Of a stretch of 64,000 bases of DNA, positions 317 to 32,482 are shown piece by piece. Position numbers and translations under genes: made by a program. Every line of letters starts with the position of its first letter. Within the stretch, counting starts at the first letter, position 1. The notes under the pieces were generated by a model, which was given only the letters and a program-made list of their open reading frames with translations, was not told the DNA's origin and did no database searches. Origin of the DNA: an uncultured virus (IMG/VR IMGVR_UViG_3300042261_000615) (lineage: Duplodnaviria; Heunggongvirae; Uroviricota; Caudoviricetes); the IMG/VR virus record IMGVR_UViG_3300042261_000615. One strand, written 5' to 3'.

Positions 317-1084
317 TTAAAATTGAAAAAATTCGTTTGATTTACTAATGTTATGATTATTTATTCGGTCCACACTTAAATCATAATAATGGGTGTCCAA
401 CTCCATACATATATAGTTTCGGTTTGTATTTATTGCGGCGATTGCAGTTGTACCACTACCAGACGTGTTATCTAATATCGTTTCACCTTCATTACTATAT
501 GTTCGTATCAACCATTCTAAACAATCTATACTTTTTTCTGTCCGATGAAGTGCTACACTTGAATGTGGTTTTTGGAAAGATATTATTGATTTTGGATATT
601 TTTTAGTCGTTTCAGTATCAGTAACCGACGGTTCAAATTTACCATAATTCTTATTATTTACATCTTTTTGTAGAAACTTTTTACCCTGATTATGCGATGG
701 TAATCCATTTGTAAATTGAGGGTTGTATGTTCCCAACTTTTTGTAAAATATAGCAATTTGTTCATGCACTCTCAATGGCATCCGTTTTGCATTTAGAAAC
801 CCACTTGTCAGTTTTTTATCCCAAACTAAATCATACTTAAACATCTTTCTATTCGATTGTACCAAATCTACATAAAATAACCCCTGAGCGAATAAAGCAA
901 TAACACCCGTATCCTTTATTATCCTCTCATAGTGTTGCCATAACGTATCAAATGGTAGGGTTATATCCTTTTTATTAGAAGTAACACCATACGGCAAATC
1001 GCATAAAATCATATCAATACTACCATCGGAAATATCTTTCATCAATTCCAAGCAATCACCGTGATATATTTTGTTTATTTCCAT
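317..1084 (-). CDS. N6-adenine/N4-cytosine DNA methyltransferase (beta class)
   Basis: GDCLELM, motif IV DLPY, HRTEK, motif I DNTSGSGTT, MELD. Confidence 0.9.
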   Translation of the reverse strand: MEINKIYHGDCLELMKDISDGSIDMILCDLPYGVTSNKKDITLPFDTLWQHYERIIKDTGVIALFAQGLFYVDLVQSNRKMFKYDLVWDKKLTSGFLNAKRMPLRVHEQIAIFYKKLGTYNPQFTNGLPSHNQGKKFLQKDVNNKNYGKFEPSVTDTETTKKYPKSIISFQKPHSSVALHRTEKSIDCLEWLIRTYSNEGETILDNTSGSGTTAIAAINTNRNYICMELDTHYYDLSVDRINNHNISKSNEFFQF

Positions 1085-1085
1085 A

Positions 1086-1937
1086 TTAAAATGCGAAAAA
1101 TTTACTAGCCTCTCGTTTTACACTTACAACACTTCCCCAATTTACACAATCGTAGAAATCTTGAAGTTTTTCAGTCAATTCACTATCCAATATTCGGTTA
1201 TGGTCTATATATGTTGTTATAAATTCCATAATCTCAGATGGATCATTATCACCCTTAAATGCCAATGCATCGATACCAAGTGGATTAGATTTCAAATATG
1301 CCCATTTGACCTTATCACCACTCCTAAGAGGTTCATACTTAAACGCACAATTAAAATGCTTCAAACAATCATTATAAAGTATTGCCGCTTTTACATGGGC
1401 AGGAGTACCTTTTTCCAAACTAAACGGTTGTCTTTTTTTGGGCATATATTTTGACATATCCTTTACAGCTGAATTCTTAGATATATCCACTACATTCATA
1501 CTCTTCATATTCGATCTAAAATCAGATATAATGTCTGTAACTTCATCTTCGGTTTTACCTTTCAATATACTAATCAAAACATCAGCCATTACTTTTTGAA
1601 ACGCTTTAGGAAATGAAGATCTCTTTACATCCAACCCCTTAACATCCAATTCATCCTTTGCTATACCATTTTCAGCAATAATCCATTGAGCATATCGTTT
1701 CTTCGATACCCACAAACCGCTACGAGATACAAACTCTTTCTTAATCTGAAAACGGTGGTTCTCTTTTGGTACATTAAATATACGTTCCGATAACAAATCG
1801 TAAAAATTATTAAGAAAATCCTGCGTTTCACCCGCAATACCATCCACTAGTTGTACAATATCCTCAATAGATTTATCTCTCCAATTATCATAACGATGGT
1901 CTAATAACGGAACTGCGCTAAAAAATACGGAATCCAT
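1086..1937 (-). CDS. Family-B DNA polymerase, C-terminal piece (second half of motif C, palm and thumb)
   Basis: Begins MDSVFF; KKRYA, VKGLDVKRSS, TPAHVKAA typical of gp43-like polymerases. Confidence 0.9.
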   Translation of the reverse strand: MDSVFFSAVPLLDHRYDNWRDKSIEDIVQLVDGIAGETQDFLNNFYDLLSERIFNVPKENHRFQIKKEFVSRSGLWVSKKRYAQWIIAENGIAKDELDVKGLDVKRSSFPKAFQKVMADVLISILKGKTEDEVTDIISDFRSNMKSMNVVDISKNSAVKDMSKYMPKKRQPFSLEKGTPAHVKAAILYNDCLKHFNCAFKYEPLRSGDKVKWAYLKSNPLGIDALAFKGDNDPSEIMEFITTYIDHNRILDSELTEKLQDFYDCVNWGSVVSVKREASKFFAF

Positions 1938-2974: not shown

Positions 2975-4744
2975 TTAGGCGATAAAATCATCACTTTCTA
3001 ACAAATCTTTTGCTAAAATTTCCTGTAATATACCATCTCGCTTTATAGAAACTTTACTATTTGGGTATTTAGTAATTTCGCTACCATTATCCAATGTAAT
3101 TATAATAGGAGTACCACCAAGTTCCATATTATATTTGGCATTAGCCATAGCTGCAGTAGATTTAATAACCTCCTGCCCCGTAAGTGTTACGGCTTCGGCA
3201 TTTGAAATATTATAGAACCTAAAAGCCGGGAGCCCCATGACGCCATATAAGCTATTGAGCAAAATCTTCTGTACTAACTGACGTTTTTTATAAAAAGTGT
3301 ATTTATCTTTATCACCGGCCAATCCAAATTGTTTTTCCAATTTTCTAAACTCAACACGTTGTTTGAACCAAGTATCCAAAATATCGGGAATACAACCAAC
3401 TTTATCGGTTCTGTACATAACACCATTTGATGCAACCGAATACTTTTCGGTTGTTATCATACGTTTTAGATTTTCAGCCGATATGATATTTTGACCAATA
3501 TGATATTCCGAAACTTTACCATTTATAAAATCGGATGCGTTCCAATTCTCAATCTTACCAATAAGAGTCTCGGGGCTAATATTAATGGTCATAATAATGG
3601 ATGGATACAGCGATGTTAAGTCCAAGTCATAAATCCACTCATACTTACCAGCTATGGGATCCTTAACATACGCTCCGATGAACTTTTCATCACCATTTTC
3701 ACGTAAGGCTTCCATTCGTTCTTGTCTATCAGCAGGTTTATTGGGTGCTACTAAATTCTTTCTTCTCAGATAAGTCAAAATAGCCCCCTCCAAATACTTC
3801 GATGAATATACAAAATCCTCATATGGTACATGACCAACGTGACATATCGCACGTGCCAAATCAATGAATTGTAACTTATTATTGAGTGCCACAACCAAAT
3901 CAACGTCCACTTTGTTGTATTCAATAAACTTTTCAATATCGTCCCTAAACAATTGGTCAAGATTTCCAGTATATTCAACCTTACCACGCTTCAACTCAAT
4001 ATTAGAAATAGTATCCAACCGATAATTCGGTAGTTCGGTGTAGGTATATGTTTTGTACAAATCAATGTAGTCCATATATGATACACCAGCTATAAAATAT
4101 CGTGTACGATACGGACTCCAAAAACACTGACCAATTGGTGATAATCTATTTGCATGTTGTTCACCCAACACATTCTTAATACGATTATACAACATCGGTG
4201 TATCGAACTTGTCTATATTCCACCCCGTTACAATTGTGGGATTGATCATTTCATATAAATCTAAATAACCCAAAAGTAGTTCAGCTTCACTACGATATGG
4301 TATTACTTTAGCACTTGCGGTATCACGTTCGACCATATCACCTTTAGCATCCAAAACCAATACATAATATTGGTCGGTTGCTGAATCGTGTACAGCAATA
4401 GATGTTATTGTATTTTGAGCTTTCTGAACATCTGGCAATCCACTCTCCATCTCAACTTCAATATCATATGTAAGTATGACATGACCATCCGATGAATCAT
4501 CAGAATCGGTGTATAAATCAATTAAAGCCCGTGTTGTTTCAGGAACATCCGATTCAAACAATTCAGGATCATCCTTTTTGAATTTGTAAATTTTATTCAG
4601 TCTATCACCATAAATTGATAGATATTGGCCACCTGCTGATTTTTCATAAGCATACCGTGTATATGGGAAAGAAAAGTACCCCTTCACACTATCCCACACA
4701 TGCATTAAGTTTCGTTCTCGTTGATAATAAATACTGCGATACAT
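2975..4744 (-). CDS. Family-B DNA polymerase, N-terminal piece (3'-5' exonuclease, motifs A and B)
   Basis: YDIEV, TGWNIDKFD, YNKVDV, DLDLTSLYPS, KILLNSLYG; ends before motif C. Confidence 0.95.
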   Translation of the reverse strand: MYRSIYYQRERNLMHVWDSVKGYFSFPYTRYAYEKSAGGQYLSIYGDRLNKIYKFKKDDPELFESDVPETTRALIDLYTDSDDSSDGHVILTYDIEVEMESGLPDVQKAQNTITSIAVHDSATDQYYVLVLDAKGDMVERDTASAKVIPYRSEAELLLGYLDLYEMINPTIVTGWNIDKFDTPMLYNRIKNVLGEQHANRLSPIGQCFWSPYRTRYFIAGVSYMDYIDLYKTYTYTELPNYRLDTISNIELKRGKVEYTGNLDQLFRDDIEKFIEYNKVDVDLVVALNNKLQFIDLARAICHVGHVPYEDFVYSSKYLEGAILTYLRRKNLVAPNKPADRQERMEALRENGDEKFIGAYVKDPIAGKYEWIYDLDLTSLYPSIIMTINISPETLIGKIENWNASDFINGKVSEYHIGQNIISAENLKRMITTEKYSVASNGVMYRTDKVGCIPDILDTWFKQRVEFRKLEKQFGLAGDKDKYTFYKKRQLVQKILLNSLYGVMGLPAFRFYNISNAEAVTLTGQEVIKSTAAMANAKYNMELGGTPIIITLDNGSEITKYPNSKVSIKRDGILQEILAKDLLESDDFIA

Positions 4745-8532: not shown

Positions 8533-8563
8533 CAAATATACTATTTTTTTTTCAGATTGCAAA
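8533..8563 (-). promoter_or_regulatory. Bacteroidota-type promoter
   Basis: TTTG-N19-TATATTTG. Confidence 0.65.
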
Positions 8564-9316
8564 ATTTATTGGGTCTAATTTATAAATCTCGTCAGTATGT
8601 GTATCATTTAATTTTGGATATGGCTTTAATTCATGCTTCAAACTTTTTATTATACGTTTCCGACCACTGCCATTCGTTAAAATATATATATACCTATGCT
8701 TTCTGGGTTCTTTTTTTATCCAAAATGGTTTGTTTACCAAAGTTTGTATTATTTTGGGGTCATTAGTCCCATAGTACGGAAAAATTGTTCTACTATGTTG
8801 CCATTCACCATTTTCATCAAATCTAAATACCCACCCATCATTGAATCGTAACTTATTACCCTGATACATCCAATTCGTTGCCTGATACACTATACCCGTA
8901 TGACCAGCTTTTGGGTCTGAGTATGATATTAATGCCTTTATATGTGGTGCATGTTGTCGTAACCATTTGAAAGTCTGTCCAACGAACCAACTCTCAACAT
9001 TACTGCCATATCCATCAAATACAAATAAACGGGTCAGTTCTAATACAGATGTACGGTCCAATAGTGGTGAAATAGATTGTCCTGCGCTTCTACCAACCGG
9101 ATCCCCATAACAAGCAACCCCTATCAACTTTTCGTTTACGTTATCAAAGAATGGGTGATATTCATTATTCTCAATAAATAACCCAATTGCATAACTAACT
9201 TTAGTCCATAAGTGTGAATAATGGTTTGAAACTATAATTTGTCTAGCAGTACCTTTTGGTATCGCCCGTATGGATAATTTGGATGTATCGCAATACTGCT
9301 TTCCTTCTATTTTCAT
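8552..9316 (-). CDS. Mom-like GNAT-fold DNA base-modification protein, paralog 2
   Basis: IVSNHYSH, VLELTRLF, ALISYSD, HTGIVYQATNWMYQG. Confidence 0.8.
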   Translation of the reverse strand: MKIEGKQYCDTSKLSIRAIPKGTARQIIVSNHYSHLWTKVSYAIGLFIENNEYHPFFDNVNEKLIGVACYGDPVGRSAGQSISPLLDRTSVLELTRLFVFDGYGSNVESWFVGQTFKWLRQHAPHIKALISYSDPKAGHTGIVYQATNWMYQGNKLRFNDGWVFRFDENGEWQHSRTIFPYYGTNDPKIIQTLVNKPFWIKKEPRKHRYIYILTNGSGRKRIIKSLKHELKPYPKLNDTHTDEIYKLDPINFAI

Positions 9317-9321
9317 ATAAT

Positions 9322-9501
9322 CTATTTAAGATGTTTCCACGTTTTACGTTTCGTTATTTCGCGGATATTCCAAGAACTCACCTTAAAGTTTCTAGCAATA
9401 ACATTATCGGAAAACCCCTTTTCATGTAACTCTCGGATTTTCTTTACTTGTTCATTTGTCAATTTTGCTTTTGGGTGCATTTCCCCCCGCAATCCGCTCA
9501 T
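9322..9501 (-). CDS. Small helix-turn-helix protein resembling the DNA-binding tail of HNH endonucleases
   Basis: GEMHPKAKLTNEQVKKIR...IARNFKVS...KTWKHL; start set at the ATGA overlap. Confidence 0.65.
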   Translation of the reverse strand: MSGLRGEMHPKAKLTNEQVKKIRELHEKGFSDNVIARNFKVSSWNIREITKRKTWKHLK

Positions 9502-10130
9502 ATCGAAAACCATTTATCAGCCCCTTTAATTATAGGGTGATACCACCCCAATATCTTACGCATCTTATTACGTTTCATATGGATTGGATATAACCATATG
9601 TTCTTCGGCAGCCCTTCACATATTACAGCCTTACCCGTTTTAACATCTTCCCTCATTCGATATGAATAATCCCTATCTATAGATAATGAGCGTGGGTGAT
9701 ATATTTTACCTTCCCATTCCACCCACTTTGTAGCCGATGTCTGCCCTATATGTCTAAAGTTAGCAGCTTTGTATATAGTACCCATATGTCCTACAGAGGT
9801 ATCGCTGTATGACAATACATTTTCATATTCAGTATTTGTAGATATCCATTGGATAATTTGTCCCAAAAACCAGCTCTCACTATTTTTTGGAGCAGCATCA
9901 ACACACGCCATTCTACGAATATCTATACAATTTTTATAACGATTTTCATGTCTCGGTTTACCCAATACAGCACCCCCAACCAAATCATTATCTATTGTCA
10001 TAGCGAAACAATTACTTATACCGCCACCCATATGACCACGCTTATAGTGAAACTCTTCAAATATATGTCGAATATCACTAAAATCACACAGATATATTTT
10101 GCAACGCGTTTTATCTAAAACTTCATCCAT
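9498..10130 (-). CDS. Mom-like GNAT-fold DNA base-modification protein, paralog 3
   Basis: FEEFHYK, IDIRRMAC, PKNSESWF, VLSYSD, HMGTIYKAANF; start set at the TAATG overlap. Confidence 0.75.
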   Translation of the reverse strand: MDEVLDKTRCKIYLCDFSDIRHIFEEFHYKRGHMGGGISNCFAMTIDNDLVGGAVLGKPRHENRYKNCIDIRRMACVDAAPKNSESWFLGQIIQWISTNTEYENVLSYSDTSVGHMGTIYKAANFRHIGQTSATKWVEWEGKIYHPRSLSIDRDYSYRMREDVKTGKAVICEGLPKNIWLYPIHMKRNKMRKILGWYHPIIKGADKWFSI

Positions 10131-10495
10131 TATTCCCAAAAACAATGATTTGTTGGTTTAATATCACCCACCTTCTTTTTCTTATCAGTATACTCAATTT
10201 TATCCGAATTATGTAGTTCCCAATCGATACGGGCCTCTGCAATTTCGAAATAATCCGGTTCACGCTCAATACCTATAAAGCTCACACCTTCACGTATTGC
10301 AGCTTTTCCGGTACTACCACTACCCATAAAAGGGTCTAACGTAACACCACCCTTTGGAGTAACCAATCGTATAAGATATGACATTAGGTCTACTGGCTTG
10401 AGCGTCGGGTGCGTATTCGATTTACCAGTATGCAGCGTAAAATGTATTTTTAGTTCGTCTGGTAATTTATCGTATTGCTGCTTTGATAGTTTCAT
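10130..10495 (-). CDS. Split DNA methyltransferase, C-terminal SAM-binding piece
   Basis: NTHPTLKP, LDPFMGSGSTG, FIGIERE; complements the ORF at 11275-12924. Confidence 0.85.
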   Translation of the reverse strand: MKLSKQQYDKLPDELKIHFTLHTGKSNTHPTLKPVDLMSYLIRLVTPKGGVTLDPFMGSGSTGKAAIREGVSFIGIEREPDYFEIAEARIDWELHNSDKIEYTDKKKKVGDIKPTNHCFWE

Positions 10496-11216
10496 ATATA
10501 TAATCTTTATTTAATTTAATATCGCTTTCCCAAAATCTTAATACAGTATAACCAGCTTTACGCATATATGCATCTTGACTTTTATCCAGATTCATTCTTT
10601 TTAATTGTCTATGGTCAGGAATGCCCCCTTTTAATTTGGTGGGGTGACCGTGCCAATAATCACCATCCCATTGTATTACTATTTTTTTATCAACTAATAC
10701 AACATCAACTAAAAATTTATCAAATAGTAATTGCTGACATTCATATTCAACCCCTATATCGTTTAATATAAAATTACCAGCAATTTCTAATCCATTCAAC
10801 CCCTTCCTATTTTGTTGTGACTGGTTTGCTTTTATATTGGATTGTCGCCATTCATCATCACTATTTCGACATACGATAGAACAAAATTTAGTTTCATATT
10901 TTCTGCCATCGGCAAGACTTTTACTTATAGCAAATTCAGTGCCGCATGTTTTACATATAAAACGTGATTTATTTCTAGATTGCCAAATAATCTGACACGT
11001 ATTTCCACAAAATCGTTTAGATTGGGTTTTTGTAGTAAAATGGTTACTACATATTTCACATTGCTTTTCTATAATATATCTAAAAGTTCTAGTAGGTCTG
11101 TAAGTATCATAACATTTGCGAGAGCAGTATTTTTGGTTTTTATTAAAATGACCACCAACAGTCTTACCGCATGACACGCACAAAATTTCTCTATATTTAT
11201 ATTCACACTTACCCAT
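10467..11216 (-). mobile_element. Free-standing homing endonuclease (zinc-ribbon repeats plus DUF559/Vsr-like domain) splitting the methyltransferase
   Basis: CxxC...YCSxxC repeats; VDVVL...IQWDGDYWH...D...GYTVLRFWE; TATTTATA at 11249-11256. Confidence 0.85.
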
Positions 11217-11274
11217 AATAATTCATTAAGTTAAAAGGTTTCACTGTGTATAAATATAAAAAAAATAATATAAA

Positions 11275-12924
11275 TCATAAATATTTTTTAATTTTTTCTA
11301 ATATTTCTAATGCAACACCATCGTTTAATATATAAAAATCATCACCCAACCCTTCATTGCGTTCCGATTTGGATACTTTTGGACAATAAAAGAATCGAGA
11401 AGCACCACCCATATCATCATATTCGCAATTAACTTGAACTTCGGTACTATTGTTTAATTTTATCGGGTTACTTATATCAGCCGTTCTTTTATTTCCTTTT
11501 ATAGATTTACTCACACCACTTTGTTCATCCAACAGTTCCCCCGCTTCTTCATCCAAAATTATATTAGCAGGCCATCTACCCAAAGTTTGACCATTAGTTT
11601 GGTGTGTTTCTTGAGCTTTACTATAACCATAAATACCTTTGCTTACGGCACTATCACTACCCCGACTATGGTTCGTTATAGTTTCATCTGTAGCTATTCT
11701 ACACCCGTCTATGTTAATCCCACCAGTACCCCATTTCAGTACGTTGTCTGCAACAGTAGGTTCGGATAGTGGTTTTCTACAAAGTGTCCACAATTCCATA
11801 GCAGGTTTAAGAGCTGTGCCTCGGCCGTCAAATTCTGCTACATGGTTTTTTAGAATATCTACCATGCTTGAAATTAGGAGCTCCATTGTGGATACCGTAA
11901 TAATGACATTGATGACAGTAGGTAATTCCGTTTGAGATAACATGCCGCAACTCGGGGTATTCTGAACATAATTTAATATGATGGGCTTCAAGTTTTTTAT
12001 TATCTCCGCATATTGTACATTTATATCCATCTCGTTCAAGTACCGAACGTTTCCATTGTAAATCTTCTGGACTACGTCTACCTTGAGACTGTCCATTATT
12101 TTTTCTTCTAAAAGAGGATGAGCATTTATGGGAACAGAAATTATGTTCGGAGTGGATGATGTTAGTATTTGGTTTTCGTACTTCAAGTCCACAGTATTCG
12201 CATTTAATAACATTTGAGTTTGCAAGAGATCTGCAGGATTTACTACAATAGTTGTGTGCCCCTCTAGTGTGTGACAAGTTTCTATCAAATTCACTTCCGC
12301 AATTATCGCATTTGACTCTAATTTTAGTTGTGTGTCCGATACCGGAGCACTTTTTACTACAGTATTTTTTTTCGTTATATGATTTCCAGCATCTATCTGT
12401 TGTTTTGGGGATAACTGTTCCGCATGTTTCACAATATCTAAGTTCACGTTTTTCCATAATTCATATATATCTTTACTATAAGTATCAAATTTTTTAAAAT
12501 TGTCAATTGATTTATAGATATTTTTTGATATATTCATACTTTTCGGGAATCCGCTTCCATATACCCAGGCAACAATATCCCTGATTTCAAACCCAGCAAA
12601 TCGCAGACTAGATGCCATCCAATCCTGCGTTCTAGTACCACATGCGACCAGCATATACCCCCCCGGTTTCAATACTCGATATACCTCCTTCCATAATATA
12701 GGTTGGGGTACGAACGAATCCCATTCCTTTCCCATAAAACCACCACCCTTTACTTCATGGTATCCGCACTTTACCCATGATGTCATCACGTCTACAATGT
12801 CGGGTTCTTTTCCAAGTCCGTATGGAGGGTCTGTAACAATACTATCAACCGAATTGTCATCCAATTCTTTTAGCCTATCTAAGCAATCTCCTAATAATAA
12901 TTTAATGTTTCCGTTATAACTCAT
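11275..12924 (-). CDS. Split DNA methyltransferase, N-terminal catalytic piece, with a ~225-aa in-frame insertion
   Basis: GDCLDRL, TDPPYGL, WVYGSGFPKS, GTALKPA, GRWPANII, ASRFFYCPK; no FxGxG motif. Confidence 0.85.
   Translation of the reverse strand: MSYNGNIKLLLGDCLDRLKELDDNSVDSIVTDPPYGLGKEPDIVDVMTSWVKCGYHEVKGGGFMGKEWDSFVPQPILWKEVYRVLKPGGYMLVACGTRTQDWMASSLRFAGFEIRDIVAWVYGSGFPKSMNISKNIYKSIDNFKKFDTYSKDIYELWKNVNLDIVKHAEQLSPKQQIDAGNHITKKNTVVKSAPVSDTQLKLESNAIIAEVNLIETCHTLEGHTTIVVNPADLLQTQMLLNANTVDLKYENQILTSSTPNIISVPINAHPLLEEKIMDSLKVDVVQKIYNGNVRYLNEMDINVQYAEIIKNLKPIILNYVQNTPSCGMLSQTELPTVINVIITVSTMELLISSMVDILKNHVAEFDGRGTALKPAMELWTLCRKPLSEPTVADNVLKWGTGGINIDGCRIATDETITNHSRGSDSAVSKGIYGYSKAQETHQTNGQTLGRWPANIILDEEAGELLDEQSGVSKSIKGNKRTADISNPIKLNNSTEVQVNCEYDDMGGASRFFYCPKVSKSERNEGLGDDFYILNDGVALEILEKIKKYL
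11828..12457 (-). mobile_element. HNH homing endonuclease nested in the methyltransferase gene in a different frame
   Basis: Zinc-ribbon repeats, then VLERDGYKCTICG...LEAHHIK...NGITYCHQCH; promoter variant TACTTATA at 12477-12484. Confidence 0.85.
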
Positions 12925-13664
12925 TCCCAAAAATTATTTGAATTTTTATTTAATCTTTTATTTATAATTTCAATATACTCTATATTATTTTCAATTAAAA
13001 TACAATTTCGATTATTGTTTATACACACATCACCCAAAGTGCCACTACCAGCAAAATTATCCAATATAATATCACCCTCATTTGTAAATAACTTAACCAA
13101 TCGTTCAATAAGTTGATATGGTTTTTGAGTCGGATGCTTTAATTTTTCCCTACTATTATGCGGTAATGCCGGAATATCACTCCAAACGTCACTCATAGTT
13201 ATACCATCTTTTAGAATGCCTGTATAATATTCTTTTCTGTCGGTTTTTGGTTTGATTTTAATATTATTAAATGTACCCCCACTCCCATTAGTATAGTAAC
13301 AAATCGGTTCATATCCACTAGCTAAAGCCGTACCACGGGTATTATTAAATGCGCGTTTTCTAGCCCAAATTATTATTCGTTTTTCATTAAAAAATTCATC
13401 TAATATGGTTGATATTTTGCGATTATATTGACGGCCTGTAAAGATAATTATATTACCCCCATCTTTAATAATTCGTTTATATTCCACTATAATACGTCGG
13501 CACCAATCCAAATACTCAACTTCAGTACTCCATTGATTATCCCAATCTTCTTTAACTACTTTATAAAATGGCCAATCTGAAATTATATGATCTATACTAT
13601 TGGTATCGATATTCCCAAGTTCCTCTATACAATCCCCATAAATAATATTTGCGTTTACACTCAT
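12921..13664 (-). CDS. N6/N4 DNA methyltransferase (beta class) with atypical motif IV DWPF
   Basis: GDCIEEL, SDWPFY, HPTQKP, DNFAGSGT. Confidence 0.85.
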   Translation of the reverse strand: MSVNANIIYGDCIEELGNIDTNSIDHIISDWPFYKVVKEDWDNQWSTEVEYLDWCRRIIVEYKRIIKDGGNIIIFTGRQYNRKISTILDEFFNEKRIIIWARKRAFNNTRGTALASGYEPICYYTNGSGGTFNNIKIKPKTDRKEYYTGILKDGITMSDVWSDIPALPHNSREKLKHPTQKPYQLIERLVKLFTNEGDIILDNFAGSGTLGDVCINNNRNCILIENNIEYIEIINKRLNKNSNNFWE

Positions 13665-13894
13665 TTCTTTTTAATCTTTTTAATTCGTTTACGTTCAAGT
13701 TTTCGCATGTCCGCCAACTCTTTTTGTTCTCGGATGTAAATTGGTTTATAATGGATAATCACTTCAATTGGGCCCGACTTATGCTTACCCAAATCGTATT
13801 TCCAAGTTTCCCGCATATAATCATCTTCAAAGTGTCTATCAAACTTCAAAATAACATCATCAGCTATCGTATTCCTTTTCACCATATACAACAT
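13661..13894 (-). CDS. Hypothetical protein
   Basis: ORF with upstream promoter and ATGA overlap with the next gene. Confidence 0.6.
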   Translation of the reverse strand: MLYMVKRNTIADDVILKFDRHFEDDYMRETWKYDLGKHKSGPIEVIIHYKPIYIREQKELADMRKLERKRIKKIKKK

Positions 13895-13900
13895 TTTTTA

Positions 13901-13932
13901 CAAAGATACTAAAAATATCACACATATCCAAA
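13901..13932 (-). promoter_or_regulatory. Bacteroidota-type promoter heading the methyltransferase/Mom cluster
   Basis: TTTG-N20-TATCTTTG. Confidence 0.75.
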
Positions 13933-13980
13933 CCAATAGACAGTAAAAAGGCACATTTACATAATAAATGTACCTTAAAC

Positions 13981-14178
13981 TTAGCATCCCCAAAATTGGT
14001 TCAAATGCTTCCAAGTTTTATTATTTACAATCTTAATAATGCTTGTAGCAGATACTCCATTTTGGCGCGCCATCAATGAAACATTTCGATATCCCATCTT
14101 CCACAACTTTCGTATTTGTACTACCTGAGCAGACGATAATTTATGCGATGGGTGTAATTCGCCACTTAATACCGGCAT
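13981..14178 (-). CDS. Small HTH protein, paralog of 9322-9501
   Basis: GELHPSHKLSSAQVVQIR...MARQNGVS...KTWKHL. Confidence 0.65.
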   Translation of the reverse strand: MPVLSGELHPSHKLSSAQVVQIRKLWKMGYRNVSLMARQNGVSATSIIKIVNNKTWKHLNQFWGC

Positions 14179-14198
14179 ATGTAACCTTTTTTATTTTA

Positions 14199-14465
14199 TT
14201 ATATGTTTTGATTTATGATATTTACATACGTTGATTTGGGATTCAACCCTACCAATCTTCGTATCTCTTGTCCGTTTTTTTCAAACACAACAGTTGGTAC
14301 ACTTCTAACTCCGTATTGTTGTGTCAATTCTGGGGAATTATCAACATCTACGTTTTGAAACGTAACTGAAGGATAAACACCCCTAAGTTCATCAAACACA
14401 GGATTCAACGCTCGGCATGGTTGACAATATGTCCCATAAAACTTTTTTACTACTAAATTTGCCAT
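14199..14465 (-). CDS. Thioredoxin
   Basis: YCQPC active site, VDVD, YGVRSVPT; adjacent to RNR. Confidence 0.92.
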   Translation of the reverse strand: MANLVVKKFYGTYCQPCRALNPVFDELRGVYPSVTFQNVDVDNSPELTQQYGVRSVPTVVFEKNGQEIRRLVGLNPKSTYVNIINQNI

Positions 14466-14489
14466 ATCATTTATTTTTTAATTTTTTTA

Positions 14490-16346
14490 TCATTGTAATT
14501 CGCATCCAGCACCACCGCAGCTTATTTCACCACTTAAATCTGTCTCGTCAGATAACTCAACCACTTTACTCAAATCCACATCGACTAGGGATTTCATCAA
14601 TCTATCATATTCTTCTTTAGTACATTCCTGGAAAGGAGCCTGGACATAAGTGTGTTCTGCGAATGGTAATACGGATAGACCGTTGTAGTATCGGCGATTT
14701 TGCCACATCCATTCACCAACTTCAGCCCATTCATTTGGTTTTATGGATACGGTTGCGGATATATTGTGTGTATTGCTTCCATTGTCATGCCCACCTTTAA
14801 TCCAATCACCATATACCATTTTTACACGTTCTAAAAGATGTAAAGCACTTTCAGTTCTCAATATTGCACCTTCAGGTGCTTTTTGTGGTACGGATATAAC
14901 TGCTGTATCTTGCGGTCTGAAATATTCATCTTCAATCAGTTCTGGGTGATATAGCAATAGATAGTTGTAAATGGCTTCATTTTTACCAACACGGATTCTA
15001 CGAATATAATAATCACTATGCCAAGCGTGGATTCCCGACGATGTGCCCAACACCAAACTAGCCGATCCGGATGGTTTTATTACCGTCGTTCTTGCTGCAG
15101 GATTTATACCTATAAGTTTAGCGACTCTCTTATTTTCAGATTTAACAACCTCGGCCGCAGATTTCATATCCAAATTCAGTACAGCACCACTACCGATACC
15201 AGTCATAGATACTCCAATTAACGCATCCTTTTCGGTTGTGCGTTTCCATATGGGACGTAGATAATGAAAATCGGTATACCCTGCCTGTAACGTACCAATA
15301 AATGATGCAGTTCTTACACGTGCTTCGTAATCATCCTGATTTTCAACATTGGATACATTCACCTCTGTTAAATTACAGAATTGAAATGGTCTTAATGCAG
15401 TTTCCACGCAGGGGTTTGTTCCATAATCCTTATCATTTGAAAAATAAATACCAGGCTCACCTGCCCCACTCGCTTCTATACGATGCCACAAATCCAAGAA
15501 AAACTCTTTTGTTATTTTATGTCGCATCAATACTGCTGAATTATTAGCTCTACCACGCTGAGGATTCAGTTCCCACCAGGCACCACTCTTTGCACTAATC
15601 ATATCGGCATCGTTGGCTGAAAACAACGATATGAGCGCCGCCCTACGGATACCACCAGCCAATACTGCATCGGCAATATGACAAACCATATCATGTGCAT
15701 CGATGGGTTTCAACTTATCACCATTTTCTTTACTATCCAAAATACCTTCCAACTTAATCAAACACTCCTTCAATGGTTGTGGGCCAGGAGCTTTACCACC
15801 CGATGTGACCAATCTAGCACCCTTAGGTCGTATATCCCTAAAATCAAACACAGGTCTACTACCACCTTGAAAATATGCTTTTACCAGTACGGATACGGCA
15901 TCTGCCCATCCTTCAATACTGTCACCAACTAAAAATCTACGAGTCTTATCTTTGGATGGTTTACGTATCTCAGGTAGTTGTTCTATATGATGTTGTTGAA
16001 CTGAAAATCCTACACCAGACCCACCTAAAAGTAAAAACATAAATTCAGAAAATACCCTAATATCATCGACTGGGGCATATGAACAATTAAATATTCGGTT
16101 TGGCGATATTTCGATTGGTTTGCCGGCGAACTGAATAGAACGCATTGAGGGTAGTACTTTTTTATCAAAAACAAATTTGTAATTCTCTCTAATCTCACTT
16201 TCGAGCTGAGGGTATTTATCTATATGCATTTGCATATTGCGTGTTACCATTTCAGCCCAAGTCTCCCGTCTCTTTAACGTATCGTTATATTTGGCATATT
16301 TCATATGCACCGTAATGTCGCTCAAAATCTTATTCGAAATATCCAT
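14490..16346 (-). CDS. nrdJ: Class II (adenosylcobalamin-dependent) ribonucleotide reductase
   Basis: LPSMR, FNCSY, GGIRRAA, TNPCVE, FCNLTEV, IKPSG, C-terminal CGGAGC; start moved to MDISNK. Confidence 0.9.
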   Translation of the reverse strand: MDISNKILSDITVHMKYAKYNDTLKRRETWAEMVTRNMQMHIDKYPQLESEIRENYKFVFDKKVLPSMRSIQFAGKPIEISPNRIFNCSYAPVDDIRVFSEFMFLLLGGSGVGFSVQQHHIEQLPEIRKPSKDKTRRFLVGDSIEGWADAVSVLVKAYFQGGSRPVFDFRDIRPKGARLVTSGGKAPGPQPLKECLIKLEGILDSKENGDKLKPIDAHDMVCHIADAVLAGGIRRAALISLFSANDADMISAKSGAWWELNPQRGRANNSAVLMRHKITKEFFLDLWHRIEASGAGEPGIYFSNDKDYGTNPCVETALRPFQFCNLTEVNVSNVENQDDYEARVRTASFIGTLQAGYTDFHYLRPIWKRTTEKDALIGVSMTGIGSGAVLNLDMKSAAEVVKSENKRVAKLIGINPAARTTVIKPSGSASLVLGTSSGIHAWHSDYYIRRIRVGKNEAIYNYLLLYHPELIEDEYFRPQDTAVISVPQKAPEGAILRTESALHLLERVKMVYGDWIKGGHDNGSNTHNISATVSIKPNEWAEVGEWMWQNRRYYNGLSVLPFAEHTYVQAPFQECTKEEYDRLMKSLVDVDLSKVVELSDETDLSGEISCGGAGCELQ

Positions 16347-16497: not shown

Positions 16498-16992
16498 TTA
16501 TCCCAATCCTGAAACTTGTGGAGGTTTACCCCCAATCGGCATTGTTTCCATATATTTTTTATGAAGTAATTGTCTATCTTCTTCAGCACCACTCCTACTT
16601 GCTTTTTGCGAAATAATACCATCGGTTGATGTAGGATTATACACTTCAATAATTCCATGATTCGTGTCCATTTTTGTGGGAAACGTCAATCCATCCGGAC
16701 CGAATCTGTTTTTCATAATATGAATACGAGCAGTATTATTCAATTTATCTTTCGATTTTCTACTTAAACTTATAATGAAGTCTGCGTTCATAACCTTTGC
16801 ATATGAATCCGCAACTTTGTCAGCTTCAATTACCTCACTATCTACAGATGAATTATGGGTATATATATCATTGGCGTAGAACATATGCGTATCCGCCACT
16901 GTTATATCAATCGTTTCCAACTCACCAATCATTTCTATTGAAACGATTTCATCCAAATCAAAATCATTAATATCTAAAGTATGTTTATTCAT
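16498..16992 (-). CDS. Replicative helicase piece 3: 47-aa IntC (16852-16992) plus C-extein
   Basis: TIDITVADTHMFYANDIYTHN|SSVD; ADSYAKVMNAD, MKNRFG. Confidence 0.9.
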   Translation of the reverse strand: MNKHTLDINDFDLDEIVSIEMIGELETIDITVADTHMFYANDIYTHNSSVDSEVIEADKVADSYAKVMNADFIISLSRKSKDKLNNTARIHIMKNRFGPDGLTFPTKMDTNHGIIEVYNPTSTDGIISQKASRSGAEEDRQLLHKKYMETMPIGGKPPQVSGLG

Positions 16993-17956
16993 ATAAAAAT
17001 TTAATACATTGCCCAATAACAACACTTTTATTCTTCATATAATTCTCATATTTTACACGAAGAACATCATAGTTATGCGATTTCAAAAACAAATCACGTT
17101 TCATATCACGATATGTATCATGCCAATACTCACAGTCAAATTCAATAATTTTATGCTTAAACTTAAAATCAACTCTGTGTAATTTTATCAAATTATCAGT
17201 ATGTTCATAAAACTTATACTCTTCATTTAATTCATAAAAATATACGTCAGATTTCATATTATCAGGCAAATGGTTATATATTTGCCAAAATAACGTTTGT
17301 GATGATTTGGATACTCCATTAAATTCCAATGGTTTGGTAATTGCTGATAACCACTCAGTATATTTCACAGTTCCATCAATTTCACCATATTTGGATACCA
17401 TACGGTCTAATGTAATTGCATATTTTTTGCAATTCTCTTCGTATTTAATCCTACCAGCATCTGCCCCATATCTATTTACAAATGATTCAAGTGATATGTT
17501 ATCTTTAATTTTAGCACATATTTCACGACCATAGATTTCACCATATTCGTCTATATATCGTTGCCGAGATACTTTATATGATTGAATTCTATTTCGTTCA
17601 CTCCATTTAGTATAACCAACATCAACACCATGTCGTTCCTGATATTCTTCTAATGTTCTTCCGTTTTTCCACTTTTTATCTCTAAAATTATCTTTTTGAG
17701 TTTTTAGTTTTTTAGAAACAACAGCATCCCATCGTAATTTTCCATCAATATCACCATATTTATCAATATAATATTGTAAATTAAAAGTAGATTTCTTTTT
17801 AGATAAATTTTTAACATAATCATCACCATATTTAATACGTAATTCGTCCTTCGTCTTACCAAATTTTGATTTGTGGTCATTCCACATTCGAAGTCCTTCA
17901 CGCTCTCCGTATTTATTTATCCACGCTTGTTTTACAGATGCCATAATTTTTAACAT
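16985..17956 (-). mobile_element. Free-standing homing endonuclease (DUF559/Vsr-like) between helicase pieces 2 and 3
   Basis: KYG...G...W repeats; VDFK...IIEFDCEYWH...RD...YDVLRV; TATTTATA at 17969-17976. Confidence 0.8.
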
Positions 17957-17993
17957 ATTTAGTGTATATATAAATATAACAACATCACAAAAA

Positions 17994-19121
17994 TTACGTG
18001 TTTTTTTCACTTTTTTTTGTAAAAAGTTTATCACCTACCTTCAATCCCATTTCTATTGATTTCAAATTACCATATTTTGTCGGAAATTGGTGCTTAGCTG
18101 ATACATCTATGGTTTTTCCACTTTTTAATGTTATACGATATACTGCTTGAGTTCCAATTGGAAATACATTAGTAACTGGTTTATATCCATCCGATGTCAA
18201 AACCACATCCCCCTCTTTAATTTTTCCAATTTGTATTTTACCAGATGGGGTATCTACAACACTATCCAGTGCGAGGCATCTATTTGCCTGGCTTGCGGTC
18301 CATATTGGTATACCAAGTTCGCCACCCATACCCCGTAGTTCAATATAAATACCACCCTGTTCACCATAGGTACTATCGGATTTGTTTGTATGCGATAACA
18401 ATAAATCAGCGTAATCAACTATTATCAAATCAGGTTTATTGCCCAATGCAATCATCTTTTCAATATGGGCTTCCAGTTTTTTGGAGGTTATGCCTTTAGG
18501 TGGAAAATATTTAATTAATAGTTTACCTTTCAACTTTTTTATCTTCTCATATACTACATCCGATTTTTCCTTCAAATCAGATGAGGGTATTCCTGTAAAT
18601 ATCGTATCATACCGAGCCCCTACATATTTTTCCGATAATTCAAGTGTATAATGTACAACAGTCTTTCCAGCCTTAACTGCTTGAGCGCCTATGGCATTTA
18701 ACACCCATGTATTATGGGATAGTATCCCATTCGAATAAAAGCAATGTACTTTATCAACAGATAAGTCATATAATATCTTATCAGTTTTCTCTTTTATTTC
18801 TTTAATTTTAGTCACACCAGTTTCAGTCTCTATTATATCGCATGTAATATCAATATCTTTAACAGATTTCCACTCACCGTTTGCCTTCAATTTATGATCC
18901 CAACCACACTCAAGAGTCTTATTATTATTAAAATACAAACGTATTGATTTCTGTTTTACAGTTCTACATACTTGAGGTACTGTATGATACCCGTATGGTG
19001 TGTTTACCTTCAATTCATACGGAATATCAACAAAATAATCTTCAATTTCAGGAATATCATTTTTATTAAAAAAATCGTCAACCCTAATACTTTCCCGTTT
19101 CGTTTTAGTGTGAATTACCAT
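17994..19121 (-). CDS. Replicative helicase piece 2: 137-aa IntC (18711-19121), middle extein, 94-aa IntN (17997-18278)
   Basis: YDLSV...FYSNGILSHN|TWVL; YTLELSE, IIVDYADLL, WTASQANR|CLALDSVV...SAKHQF. Confidence 0.92.
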   Translation of the reverse strand: MVIHTKTKRESIRVDDFFNKNDIPEIEDYFVDIPYELKVNTPYGYHTVPQVCRTVKQKSIRLYFNNNKTLECGWDHKLKANGEWKSVKDIDITCDIIETETGVTKIKEIKEKTDKILYDLSVDKVHCFYSNGILSHNTWVLNAIGAQAVKAGKTVVHYTLELSEKYVGARYDTIFTGIPSSDLKEKSDVVYEKIKKLKGKLLIKYFPPKGITSKKLEAHIEKMIALGNKPDLIIVDYADLLLSHTNKSDSTYGEQGGIYIELRGMGGELGIPIWTASQANRCLALDSVVDTPSGKIQIGKIKEGDVVLTSDGYKPVTNVFPIGTQAVYRITLKSGKTIDVSAKHQFPTKYGNLKSIEMGLKVGDKLFTKKSEKNT

Positions 19122-31195: not shown

Positions 31196-32482
31196 TTACA
31201 CTTTTCCATAATTTTCTCCCCATGATGTTTTGACTGGAAATCCACCACTCTCAATCAGTTCCCGCAACCCCAACAGAACGGATTTGTCACAATCCAACGG
31301 AACATCAAACAGAAACGAATCATATACATATAGACTGATACGTATGCCAGTACCATCGATGTATTTCAGTATTTTTGCCAGCATATCCATATTAAGTTCG
31401 GTTTCCATTGCTTGTAAAAGATAATTGAATACCTTTTGTGGGGTGGCATCCTCAATCCAATCCAACGGAATACGCCGATATCGGGTTTGCAGGTATCCCA
31501 ATTGTTTGGAAGTGCCCCACAACTTTTCAATGTATTCAGCCACCTTATCATAATATTCGATTTGCCGGAACTCATCAGGAATACCACCATACAACAATCG
31601 GAACGTAATACCCTTACCCTCACCATATTCACACCCATATTGGTCGGCCAACCATTGGTGTACGGAAGTTTTCGGCAATTCATATCCTATCAATTTACCG
31701 ATAATGCGTGGGTGATATGCATCATAGTCCATTTGCAGGAATATTCCGTCTGCCACGAAACAATCACGGCTACCATCGGATTTGTTCAATGCAGAGAAAT
31801 TCACCCCACCATGTCGGTTTGATGGTCGGCCGGTCACCGTAAACGGATTGTATTCGGTGTACACCCTACTATTTGGTGAAATATGCTTAGATGAATGGCT
31901 AAAACTATCTGTAAATTTTTTCCTATCGACCCCCACACCCCATTTCTCAATTTGAGATAATGTTGGAATGAATATTTTATCATACCAATTGTAACTATAA
32001 TTCGTATTATCTATACTGATATTATTGATAAATGAACGTATAGTTTCACACAATTTTAATATTGGTAACGATTGTATCAAATCATCTTTGTATCCATGTC
32101 TGGTTAGAATTGACATCACCGGTTGCAATATGGTATCATACTCAATCACCTTACCATTTTTCAAAAAATAAGCGGAATCAACATCATTTACATTGTCACC
32201 ATTGATAGATAATGATTGGATGAACTTCTTCTTTTGGAATGACCATATCTCCGTTGCATCATTAAATACATCGGTAATATCATCGATTTTCAGTGGAAGC
32301 ATATCCGTATGGTGTACGGAAACTATATATTCCGTTCCGCCGCATACTACAAATATAAATGAAAGTTTGGTATTGTATGGGTGTTTGGAATTATCAACCC
32401 ACATTGGAAAGCACACACACATATCGTGCTTAACGATGGATTTCAGTTCCATCAACTCATCGTATGTTTCTATTGTGCGCAT
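31196..32482 (-). CDS. Compact family-A DNA polymerase-like protein
   Basis: TVTGRPS, motif A MDYDAYHPR, motif B GKGITFRLLYG, NYLLQ, motif C YVYDSFLFD. Confidence 0.8.
   Translation of the reverse strand: MRTIETYDELMELKSIVKHDMCVCFPMWVDNSKHPYNTKLSFIFVVCGGTEYIVSVHHTDMLPLKIDDITDVFNDATEIWSFQKKKFIQSLSINGDNVNDVDSAYFLKNGKVIEYDTILQPVMSILTRHGYKDDLIQSLPILKLCETIRSFINNISIDNTNYSYNWYDKIFIPTLSQIEKWGVGVDRKKFTDSFSHSSKHISPNSRVYTEYNPFTVTGRPSNRHGGVNFSALNKSDGSRDCFVADGIFLQMDYDAYHPRIIGKLIGYELPKTSVHQWLADQYGCEYGEGKGITFRLLYGGIPDEFRQIEYYDKVAEYIEKLWGTSKQLGYLQTRYRRIPLDWIEDATPQKVFNYLLQAMETELNMDMLAKILKYIDGTGIRISLYVYDSFLFDVPLDCDKSVLLGLRELIESGGFPVKTSWGENYGKV

Follow-up and report, generated by a model that had tools for sequence, protein, structure and literature searches.

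An HNH endonuclease gene nested out of frame in a DNA methyltransferase gene of an uncultured virus, with a conserved open host frame

The window analyzed here is a stretch of 64,000 nucleotides from an uncultured virus of the Caudoviricetes (IMG/VR record IMGVR_UViG_3300042261_000615), and its element of interest is a small HNH endonuclease gene that lies wholly inside a DNA methyltransferase (methylase) gene. The host open reading frame (ORF), at 11275..12930 on the minus strand, consists of 551 codons and matches positions 1-120 of 221 in the family PF01555 (E 5.5e-11; residues 28-161 of the ORF in Pfam), as well as phrog_67 and phrog_3008 in PHROGs. The product is predicted to be the N-terminal piece of a beta-class N6/N4 DNA methyltransferase with the motif DPPY (motif IV); the nearest solved relatives are 5hek and 6pbd. 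A candidate start codon, which is likely the true one, is the ATG at 12924 that overlaps (ATGA) the stop of an upstream methylase gene. Motif I is absent from the 551-codon ORF and is located in a C-terminal piece of 121 codons at 10130..10495 on the minus strand (DPFMGSGSTG; PF01555 positions 157-220 of 221, E 1.7e-21). The two pieces are separated by a second, free-standing endonuclease gene at 10467..11216 on the minus strand, which combines zinc ribbons with a DUF559/Vsr-like nuclease (PF04480, E 2.1e-8). Judged from this gene order, the host methylase gene has been invaded twice, by the nested HNH gene and by the endonuclease gene between its N and C pieces.

The nested HNH gene occupies 11828..12457 on the minus strand (ATG 12457-12455, TGA 11830-11828) and encodes 209 amino acids. 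Every HNH codon begins on the third base of a methylase codon, which places the gene in frame +2. A preliminary description of this DNA had reported a 209-residue HNH ORF enclosed by the methylase ORF on the same strand in another frame, and a methylase frame free of stops across it; both observations are confirmed. The HNH ORF matches phrog_1271 (HNH endonuclease) at E 8.6e-25, and its match to Pfam HNH (PF01844; E 0.0043, 17.6 bits) falls under the cut-off of 21.4. In the protein, three CxxC...(Y/F)CSxxC zinc-ribbon repeats precede a C-terminal HNH core. All 10 aligned family members share the zinc-ribbon cysteines, C147, C150, H159, H160, N176, C181, H182, C184, H185, and H190. With a His-Me finger core, the conserved H, N, and H, and a CxxC pair, the small ORF is predicted to be an HNH endonuclease; a PDB sequence search with the HNH profile returned no match.

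Alignment with insert-bearing and insert-free homologs delimits a host-frame stretch of 239 residues from GFPKS to GTALKPA (11821..12537, minus strand), a region in which insert-free homologs have a short variable loop. The preliminary description had put this stretch at about 225 residues from GFPKSMNISK to GTALKPA. The stretch contains a native target copy 'NISKNIYK', the overprinted insert peptide, and a junction without the native loop. The 5' leader of the cassette (12458..12510, minus strand) harbors a degenerate second target copy (SIDNF), within which the hexamer TTGACA lies at 12507-12502. The HNH stop lies four codons ahead of GTALKPA.

The chance of an open methylase frame was estimated by permutation of synonymous codons within the HNH gene of the window, as the preliminary description had proposed. 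The methylase frame stays open in 20 of 20,000 permutations (0.001), a conservative estimate since the codon usage of the HNH gene is already shaped by the overlap, and in 0 of 20,000 sequences when codons are drawn from the usage of the flanking methylase. Synonymous permutations of relatives keep the host frame open in 0.005-0.16, and the third frame across the HNH gene has 35 stops. As stop-free alternative frames are rare in AT-rich DNA, these statistics are stronger than in the G+C-rich mycobacteriophage cases discussed below.

The census of relatives covered both sides of the overlap. From the methylase side, the same insert is carried in frame by eight of 119 other best methylase homologs, and a ninth came from a region-limited word search. 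A viral scan anchored on the methylase-frame peptide gave 11 loci, nine of them distinct, all with an intact HNH ORF of 192-212 amino acids in frame +2 and an open host frame. Scans that use only the HNH motif avoid ascertainment via the host frame. In such a scan of viral contigs, 80 loci were kept of 174 relatives and one locus was unparsable. All 22 close full-length relatives among them are nested with no host-frame stops, whereas the 57 more distant, free-standing relatives all have 5-21 stops in the corresponding frame. The free-standing relatives contain 6.5 stops per 100 codons in the methylase-equivalent frame versus 13.3 in the other frame, which indicates that frame +2 is the easier one to clear. 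A scan of species genomes added two loci, in a Pseudomonadales and a Bacteroidales metagenome-assembled genome (MAG), both nested and open, the latter cut by the contig end. In metagenomes, the best 80 of 239 relatives include 71 sense copies, 60 of which hold the whole HNH region; these limits apply to all metagenome counts given here. The host frame is open in 59 of the 60 whole sense copies, in one of these only under genetic code table 25, and the HNH gene is intact in 57. The other three (L140, L149, and L155) have one stop in the HNH frame and a host frame that is still open.

The viral and metagenome collections share some contigs; by sequence, they hold 80 nested genes, 46 of which are less than 80% identical to each other in amino acids. 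A profile search of 1.84 billion representatives with the insert peptide detected 143 clusters at E<=0.001, of which 102 reach E<=1e-30; truncated proteins among them say little on stops because most of their contigs measure 0.9-2.8 kb. No DNA nearly identical to 10000..13700 was found in a phage collection. A viral scan with the insert peptide of the window alone found no relative, and one with its HNH protein alone found distant matches only. The preliminary description had argued that some 210 stop-free alternative codons in AT-rich DNA imply selection, and had named frequent host-frame stops in homologous insertions as evidence to the contrary. Among sense copies, all 24 close relatives and 59 of the 60 whole metagenome copies have an open host frame. 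The chance tests and the comparative census together support the proposal that selection keeps the methylase frame open across the HNH gene.

The copy that is open under table 25 (L183, 548..2542) reads TGA as glycine. The methylase of this locus has 664 amino acids with 19 TGA codons and the nested HNH protein 216 amino acids with 12. The 11 TGA codons in the aligned HNH stretch coincide with the stop positions of the table-11 reading, and several are at conserved glycines.

The absence of intein and group I intron motifs noted in the preliminary description is borne out by database searches. Rfam at E<=10 over 9000..14500 gave no group I intron and only two irrelevant weak matches, Rfam at E<=1 gave nothing relevant in six relatives, and no Hint/intein family was found at E<=0.1 in nine insert peptides. 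The hallmarks of a group I intron are missing, as the covariance models recovered no ribozyme core and the open host frame is conserved; those of an intein are missing as well, and the insert of the window ends ...ILKNHVAEFDGR|GTALKPA. A look-up of sequencing runs found the stretch in three DNA contig sets from freshwater or lake samples, one of which may be its source, and in no RNA run; the contig sets contain neither a joined form nor an empty allele. It has to be considered whether the insert is nonetheless removed before or during translation, by an unrecognized intron, an intein-like reaction, or ribosomal bypass, the open frame having some other cause. The insert opens with a repeat of the target motif, a feature likened to group I introns by the authors who described a comparable mycobacteriophage element (Arsenault, Gosselin and Gogarten 2025, PMC11855218). 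Removal would leave about 200 stop-free codons in 46 diverged lineages and a set of fixed wobble bases unexplained, and together with the negative Rfam and Hint searches this makes it a very improbable account. Retention of the insert in the protein would require no splicing.

The cassette has a recurrent anatomy. The usual order in relatives is GFPKS with a native-like target copy (xISKxIDx), a linker, a second copy (KISKALDNI), the HNH gene, and a third copy. In most relatives, the third copy (SKAVDK) overlaps the HNH stop and leads into the native loop (GNEREV...). The window and L138, L144, L167, and L156, all of 28-37% G+C, have lost both this copy and the loop. The motifs DPPY, GTALKPA, SRFFY, and DPFxGSG are kept in insert-bearing methylases.

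The distribution of the cassette is patchy. A methylase tree from which the loop was excluded comprises 129 rows, 29 of them with the insert, and does not include 14 rows that lack anchor motifs. On this tree, no fewer than 10 gains or losses of the insert are required, seven of which are forced by well-supported branches. An approximately unbiased (AU) test, run without the gappy or long-branched rows L032, L039, L051, L053, and P0087, rejects a single clade of insert-bearing methylases (25 rows versus 99; log-likelihood difference 722.7, p-AU 8e-71). The cassette is also younger than the methylase sequence around it. All 24 pairs with an HNH identity of 72%-98.5% have HNH proteins that share 73-96% of amino acids, versus 44-71% for the methylase flanks, and third-position differences per site amount to 0.257 in the HNH gene versus 0.593 in the flanks. 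DNA identity jumps to about 90-100% from about 80 nucleotides before the HNH ATG to about 30 nucleotides after its stop (L030/L035 and L044/L051). A sister pair with and without the insert (P0007 and P0021) is 91% and 86% identical in the two flanks, and the insert replaces 43 residues. These comparisons point to a mobile cassette.

Nesting in this methylase family is not confined to one HNH lineage. Four separate nested lineages are present, all in frame +2: that of the window, that of the mycobacteriophage element mentioned above (the ShiLan domain), and two more found further downstream in single loci. The latter are unrelated to the HNH of the window and lie in open host frames, one at 3770..4198 of L038 (142 amino acids, phrog_1271, E 7e-13) and one at 3887..4285 of L048 (132 amino acids, PF13392 HNH_3, E 1.5e-18).

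The overlap offers a view of selection on the read-through peptide. The third position of an HNH codon is the second position of a host codon, so that every synonymous HNH change there alters the second base of the host codon. In 46 diverged nested genes of 34-57% G+C, 21 of 69 HNH columns with a conserved residue favor one codon far above pooled usage (Bonferroni 0.05). Examples are Y186 as TAT in 45/45, P194 as CCT in 45/45, N195 as AAT in 45/46, I161 as ATT in 41/42, and residue L156 as CTT in 45/46. The fixed columns are concentrated in HNH residues 126-199, which hold 19 of the 21; TGT and TGC are similarly frequent at the zinc-ribbon cysteines of the N-terminal half. Most of the fixed choices could not create a stop, and stop avoidance therefore does not explain them. 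At these 21 columns, the common codon is found in nested genes in 785 of 941 cases (0.83), in the 11 nested genes with a G+C content of at least 0.48 in 195 of 226, and in antisense members of the family, described below, in 68 of 165 (0.41; eight genes, six of them distinct, G+C 0.45-0.55). The read-through peptide thus looks selected in its own right and not merely tolerated; the fixed codons may alternatively reflect a constraint at the nucleic-acid level. The preliminary description had suggested that the element stays neutral by being read through as a tolerated loop. Read-through fits the open frames and the lack of an intron or intein signal, but neutrality is at odds with the constraint on codons in the C-terminal part. 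Other wobble tests do not count as evidence of peptide constraint, the cassette being younger than its flanks.

The codon-level constraint on the host-frame peptide is what would be expected had the cassette been domesticated, with the peptide or the HNH protein now in the service of the enzyme or the phage, for example in place of the deleted loop or target-recognition region, or as a nuclease partner. The intact HNH gene in most whole sense copies fits such a role, as does the loss of the native loop in the window and the four loci that share its deletion, where the insert is the sole link between the halves of the enzyme. Domestication is nevertheless unlikely. The patchy distribution and the youth of the cassette relative to the flanks are those of a selfish element, insert-free sisters exist, and the insert peptide has no recognizable family. 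Nine host-frame insert peptides share no Pfam family, the ESM Atlas gave no usable match, and the insert peptide of the window scored by a protein language model (recognition 1176) falls within the range of shuffled sequences.

The expression of the HNH gene appears to differ between the window and most of its relatives. The start codon is ATG in all 64 distinct sense loci. The arrangement TTGACA, 16 nucleotides, and TATAAT, ending exactly six nucleotides before the ATG, is matched at 10 or more of 12 positions in 38 of 64 loci and at 12 of 12 in 17, versus a background rate of 1.05e-4 at 579,396 other positions. Given the usual distance from a -10 box to the start site, transcription in most relatives would start on the A of the HNH ATG or beside it and yield leaderless mRNAs. 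In the window, the AT-rich leader at 12458..12510 has no Shine-Dalgarno motif and no good -10 box, and a sigma-70 scan found no site ahead of the HNH gene. Shine-Dalgarno-like motifs precede four of the 56 long ORFs in the window, and the 80 nucleotides around the HNH start are essentially unstructured (minimum free energy -3.2 kcal/mol, z +1.16). Internal initiation on the methylase mRNA is a plausible means of HNH translation in the window. The late-type box TACTTATA that the preliminary description had placed at 12477-12484 is present. It occurs 12 times in the window versus 5.4 expected, with nine of the 12 on the non-coding strand, and neither the count nor the strand distribution supports it as a promoter box. 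The count of TANNTTTG, 104 versus 85 expected, is uninformative.

The observations are best accommodated by a mobile cassette, about 0.7 kb long, that has entered the variable loop of the methyltransferase at a conserved 'D-I-S-K-A-I-D-K' site right after GFPKS. The cassette would comprise a leader with a degenerate target copy, then the HNH homing-endonuclease gene, and finally a 3' end overlapping a further target copy. The HNH protein would be translated from its own ATG in frame +2, while ribosomes on the methylase frame would pass through the cassette and add about 225 residues between two conserved parts of the enzyme. As the host frame would be read through, the host gene would not be destroyed. 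Host selection would keep the frame free of stops and constrain the last 75 or so residues of the extra peptide, a stretch that probably needs a compact fold in which the ends of the insertion meet. The cassette would spread horizontally among diverged methylase genes, presumably when the HNH protein cuts insert-free alleles. Taken as a whole, with a nested HNH gene, methylase read-through under selection, and horizontal spread, this mechanism is held with good confidence.

Several observations weigh against it. A single nonsense codon interrupts the host frame of one sense copy (L169). In at least nine metagenome copies, the HNH gene lies at the same site but antisense to the methylase, which is split into two ORFs. 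Read-through thus appears not to be the sole tolerated state. The antisense members belong to one clade, and their contrast in codon use with the nested genes therefore amounts to a single phylogenetic comparison. The window itself scores 4/12 in the promoter geometry, which its nearest relatives lack as well. The activity of the window methylase is uncertain, given that the second endonuclease gene has cut it in two; the enzyme would have to act as two polypeptides.

The split raises the question of whether the open frame is a relic, with a dead methylase and the HNH gene as the sole functional part, a reading that the deletion of the native loop would also suit. Both pieces, however, keep their catalytic motifs and full length, and a dead frame at 36% G+C would soon gain stops, as many as 35 being present in the third frame. 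The split also recurs, together with this kind of endonuclease gene, in L027/L038 and in L156, where the gene at the equal split site is 42% identical, and ShiLan gp65/gp67 are likewise split. The relic reading is accordingly quite improbable, and the mobile cassette in a read-through methylase remains preferred.

The second cut (10130..11330, minus strand) has features of its own. The zinc ribbons of the endonuclease at 10467..11216 resemble those of the nested HNH protein (E 6e-5). The N piece ends in the tail '..GLGDDFYILNDGVALEILEKIKKYL*' and the C piece begins with the head 'MKLSKQQYDKLPDELKIHF..', and the two look like copies of one Y-x-L..D..PE-type segment, a resemblance which suggests that the target has been duplicated at this site too. 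The tail, the endonuclease gene, and the head recur together in L027/L038 and L156, and the tail of ShiLan gp65 is similar.

The antisense members (L114, L117, L131, L135, L136, L152, L163, L165, and likely L145) form one group on the HNH tree, with a Shimodaira-Hasegawa-like approximate likelihood ratio (SH-aLRT) of 92. At these loci, the methylase frame contains 9-14 stops, and the two ORFs have conserved peptides at the junction, with '..AEKGFxExVWSxDRE*' closing the N piece and 'MSSxVxERIELEIxGxxVxVERLxDGTFxKPxYLAGAEREVVG' opening the C piece. One of them (L163, 1..4597, minus strand) harbors four invaders in one methylase gene, namely the antisense HNH gene, a ShiLan-type HNH gene (856..1479) in the ShiLan position, a segment within motif I that resembles the end of an intein, and a gene with zinc ribbons and DUF559 on the other strand.

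The closest published system is the ShiLan domain, an out-of-frame HNH gene in a mycobacteriophage methylase with an open host frame and no intron or intein, in which the start of the insert repeats flanking residues and whose distribution is disjunct (PMC11855218). The domain, which lies in the methylase gp65, is also treated by Gosselin et al. 2023 (PMC9957025). The two systems share much. The methylases belong to the same family, gp65 aligning by eye on DPPYG, GFPKSMDVSKAIDKAAGAEREVIG, GTALKP, and SRFF; the HNH frame is +2 in an open host frame without intron or intein signs; and the repeat at the insert start and the patchy distribution recur. The zinc-ribbon repeats are of the same type (E 3e-7), and the methylase is split into N and C ORFs in both. 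The differences are equally clear. The ShiLan site is GTALKPxxEP, while the window site follows GFPKS..SKAIDK about 70 residues upstream. The ShiLan protein is arranged ribbon-HNH-ribbon, in contrast with the three ribbons and then HNH of the window, and the HNH cores do not align. ShiLan starts with GTG, whereas the window family starts with ATG and, in the 38 of 64 relatives noted above, has a near-consensus promoter in leaderless geometry. The hosts of the window family, unlike those of ShiLan, are not actinobacteria, and comprise Escherichia coli phage BUCT618, the Pseudomonadales and Bacteroidales MAGs, the contig recoded to TGA as glycine, and freshwater phage contigs of 28-37% G+C. With another site and only zinc ribbons that align, the window element is not the ShiLan domain proper. 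It does have, by its sequence, the features of a hidden out-of-frame HNH gene, which are a nested ORF, an open host frame, no detectable intron or intein, and a disjunct distribution.

The one cultivable member is in E. coli phage BUCT618 (OM735461.1), with an HNH protein of the same family (51% identity over 96% of the query) and the same site, frame, and layout. The gene is annotated only as a 620-residue site-specific DNA-methyltransferase. The methylase of BUCT618 is in one piece, and its native loop (AAGAEREVVG...) still follows the cassette, whereas that of the window has lost the loop and is split by the second endonuclease gene. Literature on hidden HNH genes in methylases was found in full-text searches (supplements not covered) only for actinobacteriophages, in PMC11855218, PMC9957025, and the genome announcement PMC12613952. 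The searches found no paper on a hidden HNH gene in the BUCT618 methylase, and the words Escherichia, BUCT618, and selection are absent from the main text of PMC11855218. The preliminary description had proposed a route to host-gene rescue distinct from introns and inteins. The distinction stands, as no such signal was detected, but the route is not new, having been published in 2025 for mycobacteriophage methylases (PMC11855218). The window represents a further, widespread lineage of this published design and not a new principle. Whether the insert is retained in mRNA and protein was left open by the authors of that study (section 4.4 of PMC11855218).

The lineage of the window adds an unbiased census with natural controls, codon-level signs of selection on the peptide, a promoter geometry that would give leaderless HNH mRNAs in most relatives, and antisense use of the same site. 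A third route, in which a nuclease is overprinted on a read-through stretch as first reported in 2025, gains weight from this family and extends beyond actinobacteriophages to many uncultured phages and one cultivable E. coli phage. Three of the additions are testable, namely selection on the overprinted peptide, the promoter geometry with the leaderless nuclease mRNA that it predicts, and the sense/antisense dimorphism at one site. They would combine in a self-contained dual-coding module, with a selected bridging peptide that joins the methylase halves, a near-consensus sigma-70 promoter for a leaderless HNH mRNA in most relatives, and an alternative antisense invasion in which a two-ORF methylase has dedicated tail and head peptides; this combined proposal is tentative, its chances somewhat short of even. 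For annotation, the consequence is that such nuclease genes are routinely missed, as in BUCT618, and oversized methylases deserve checking for them.

By the common view, a homing endonuclease depends on an intron, an intein, or an intergenic site. The nested HNH gene resembles inteins and group I introns in that a homing nuclease has invaded a conserved gene without killing it. It differs from them in that the insert has no Hint blocks or ribozyme core and the frame of the nuclease is not that of the host protein. Another arrangement is exemplified by mobE in nrdA of Aeromonas phage Aeh1, reportedly a free-standing homing endonuclease gene that splits its host gene. The window endonuclease at 10467..11216 between the methylase pieces is of a similar type, as are the antisense HNH members with a methylase cut into two ORFs, whereas the nested HNH gene leaves the host ORF unsplit.

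The genomic setting is that of a myovirus-like phage, with genes for a tail sheath, a DNA polymerase, a DnaB-like helicase, and a class II-like ribonucleotide reductase, whose sequence pointed to no particular host or lineage; the long genes of the window are all on the minus strand. The DNA of the window is found in freshwater and lake metagenome runs. The gene upstream of the invaded methylase (12921..13664, minus strand) encodes a complete, uninterrupted PF01555 methyltransferase and ends in a stop that shares bases with the probable start codon of the invaded gene (ATGA). A second nested ORF in the window (31366..31683) matches no family. Two small minus-strand ORFs at 9322..9513 and 13981..14178, of 63 and 65 amino acids, are similar to each other. 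The first matches the C-terminal parts of HNH/endonuclease PHROGs (phrog_20467, E 1.5e-8) and is flanked by Mom-like genes at 8552..9316 and 9498..10145, and both may be remnants of further homing-endonuclease genes. Another endonuclease may lie beside a replication gene, as the ORF at 16985..18034 (minus strand) matches phrog_22677, a family that also has a weak match to the DUF559 endonuclease, and overlaps the 3' end of the DnaB-like helicase gene (17994..19121).

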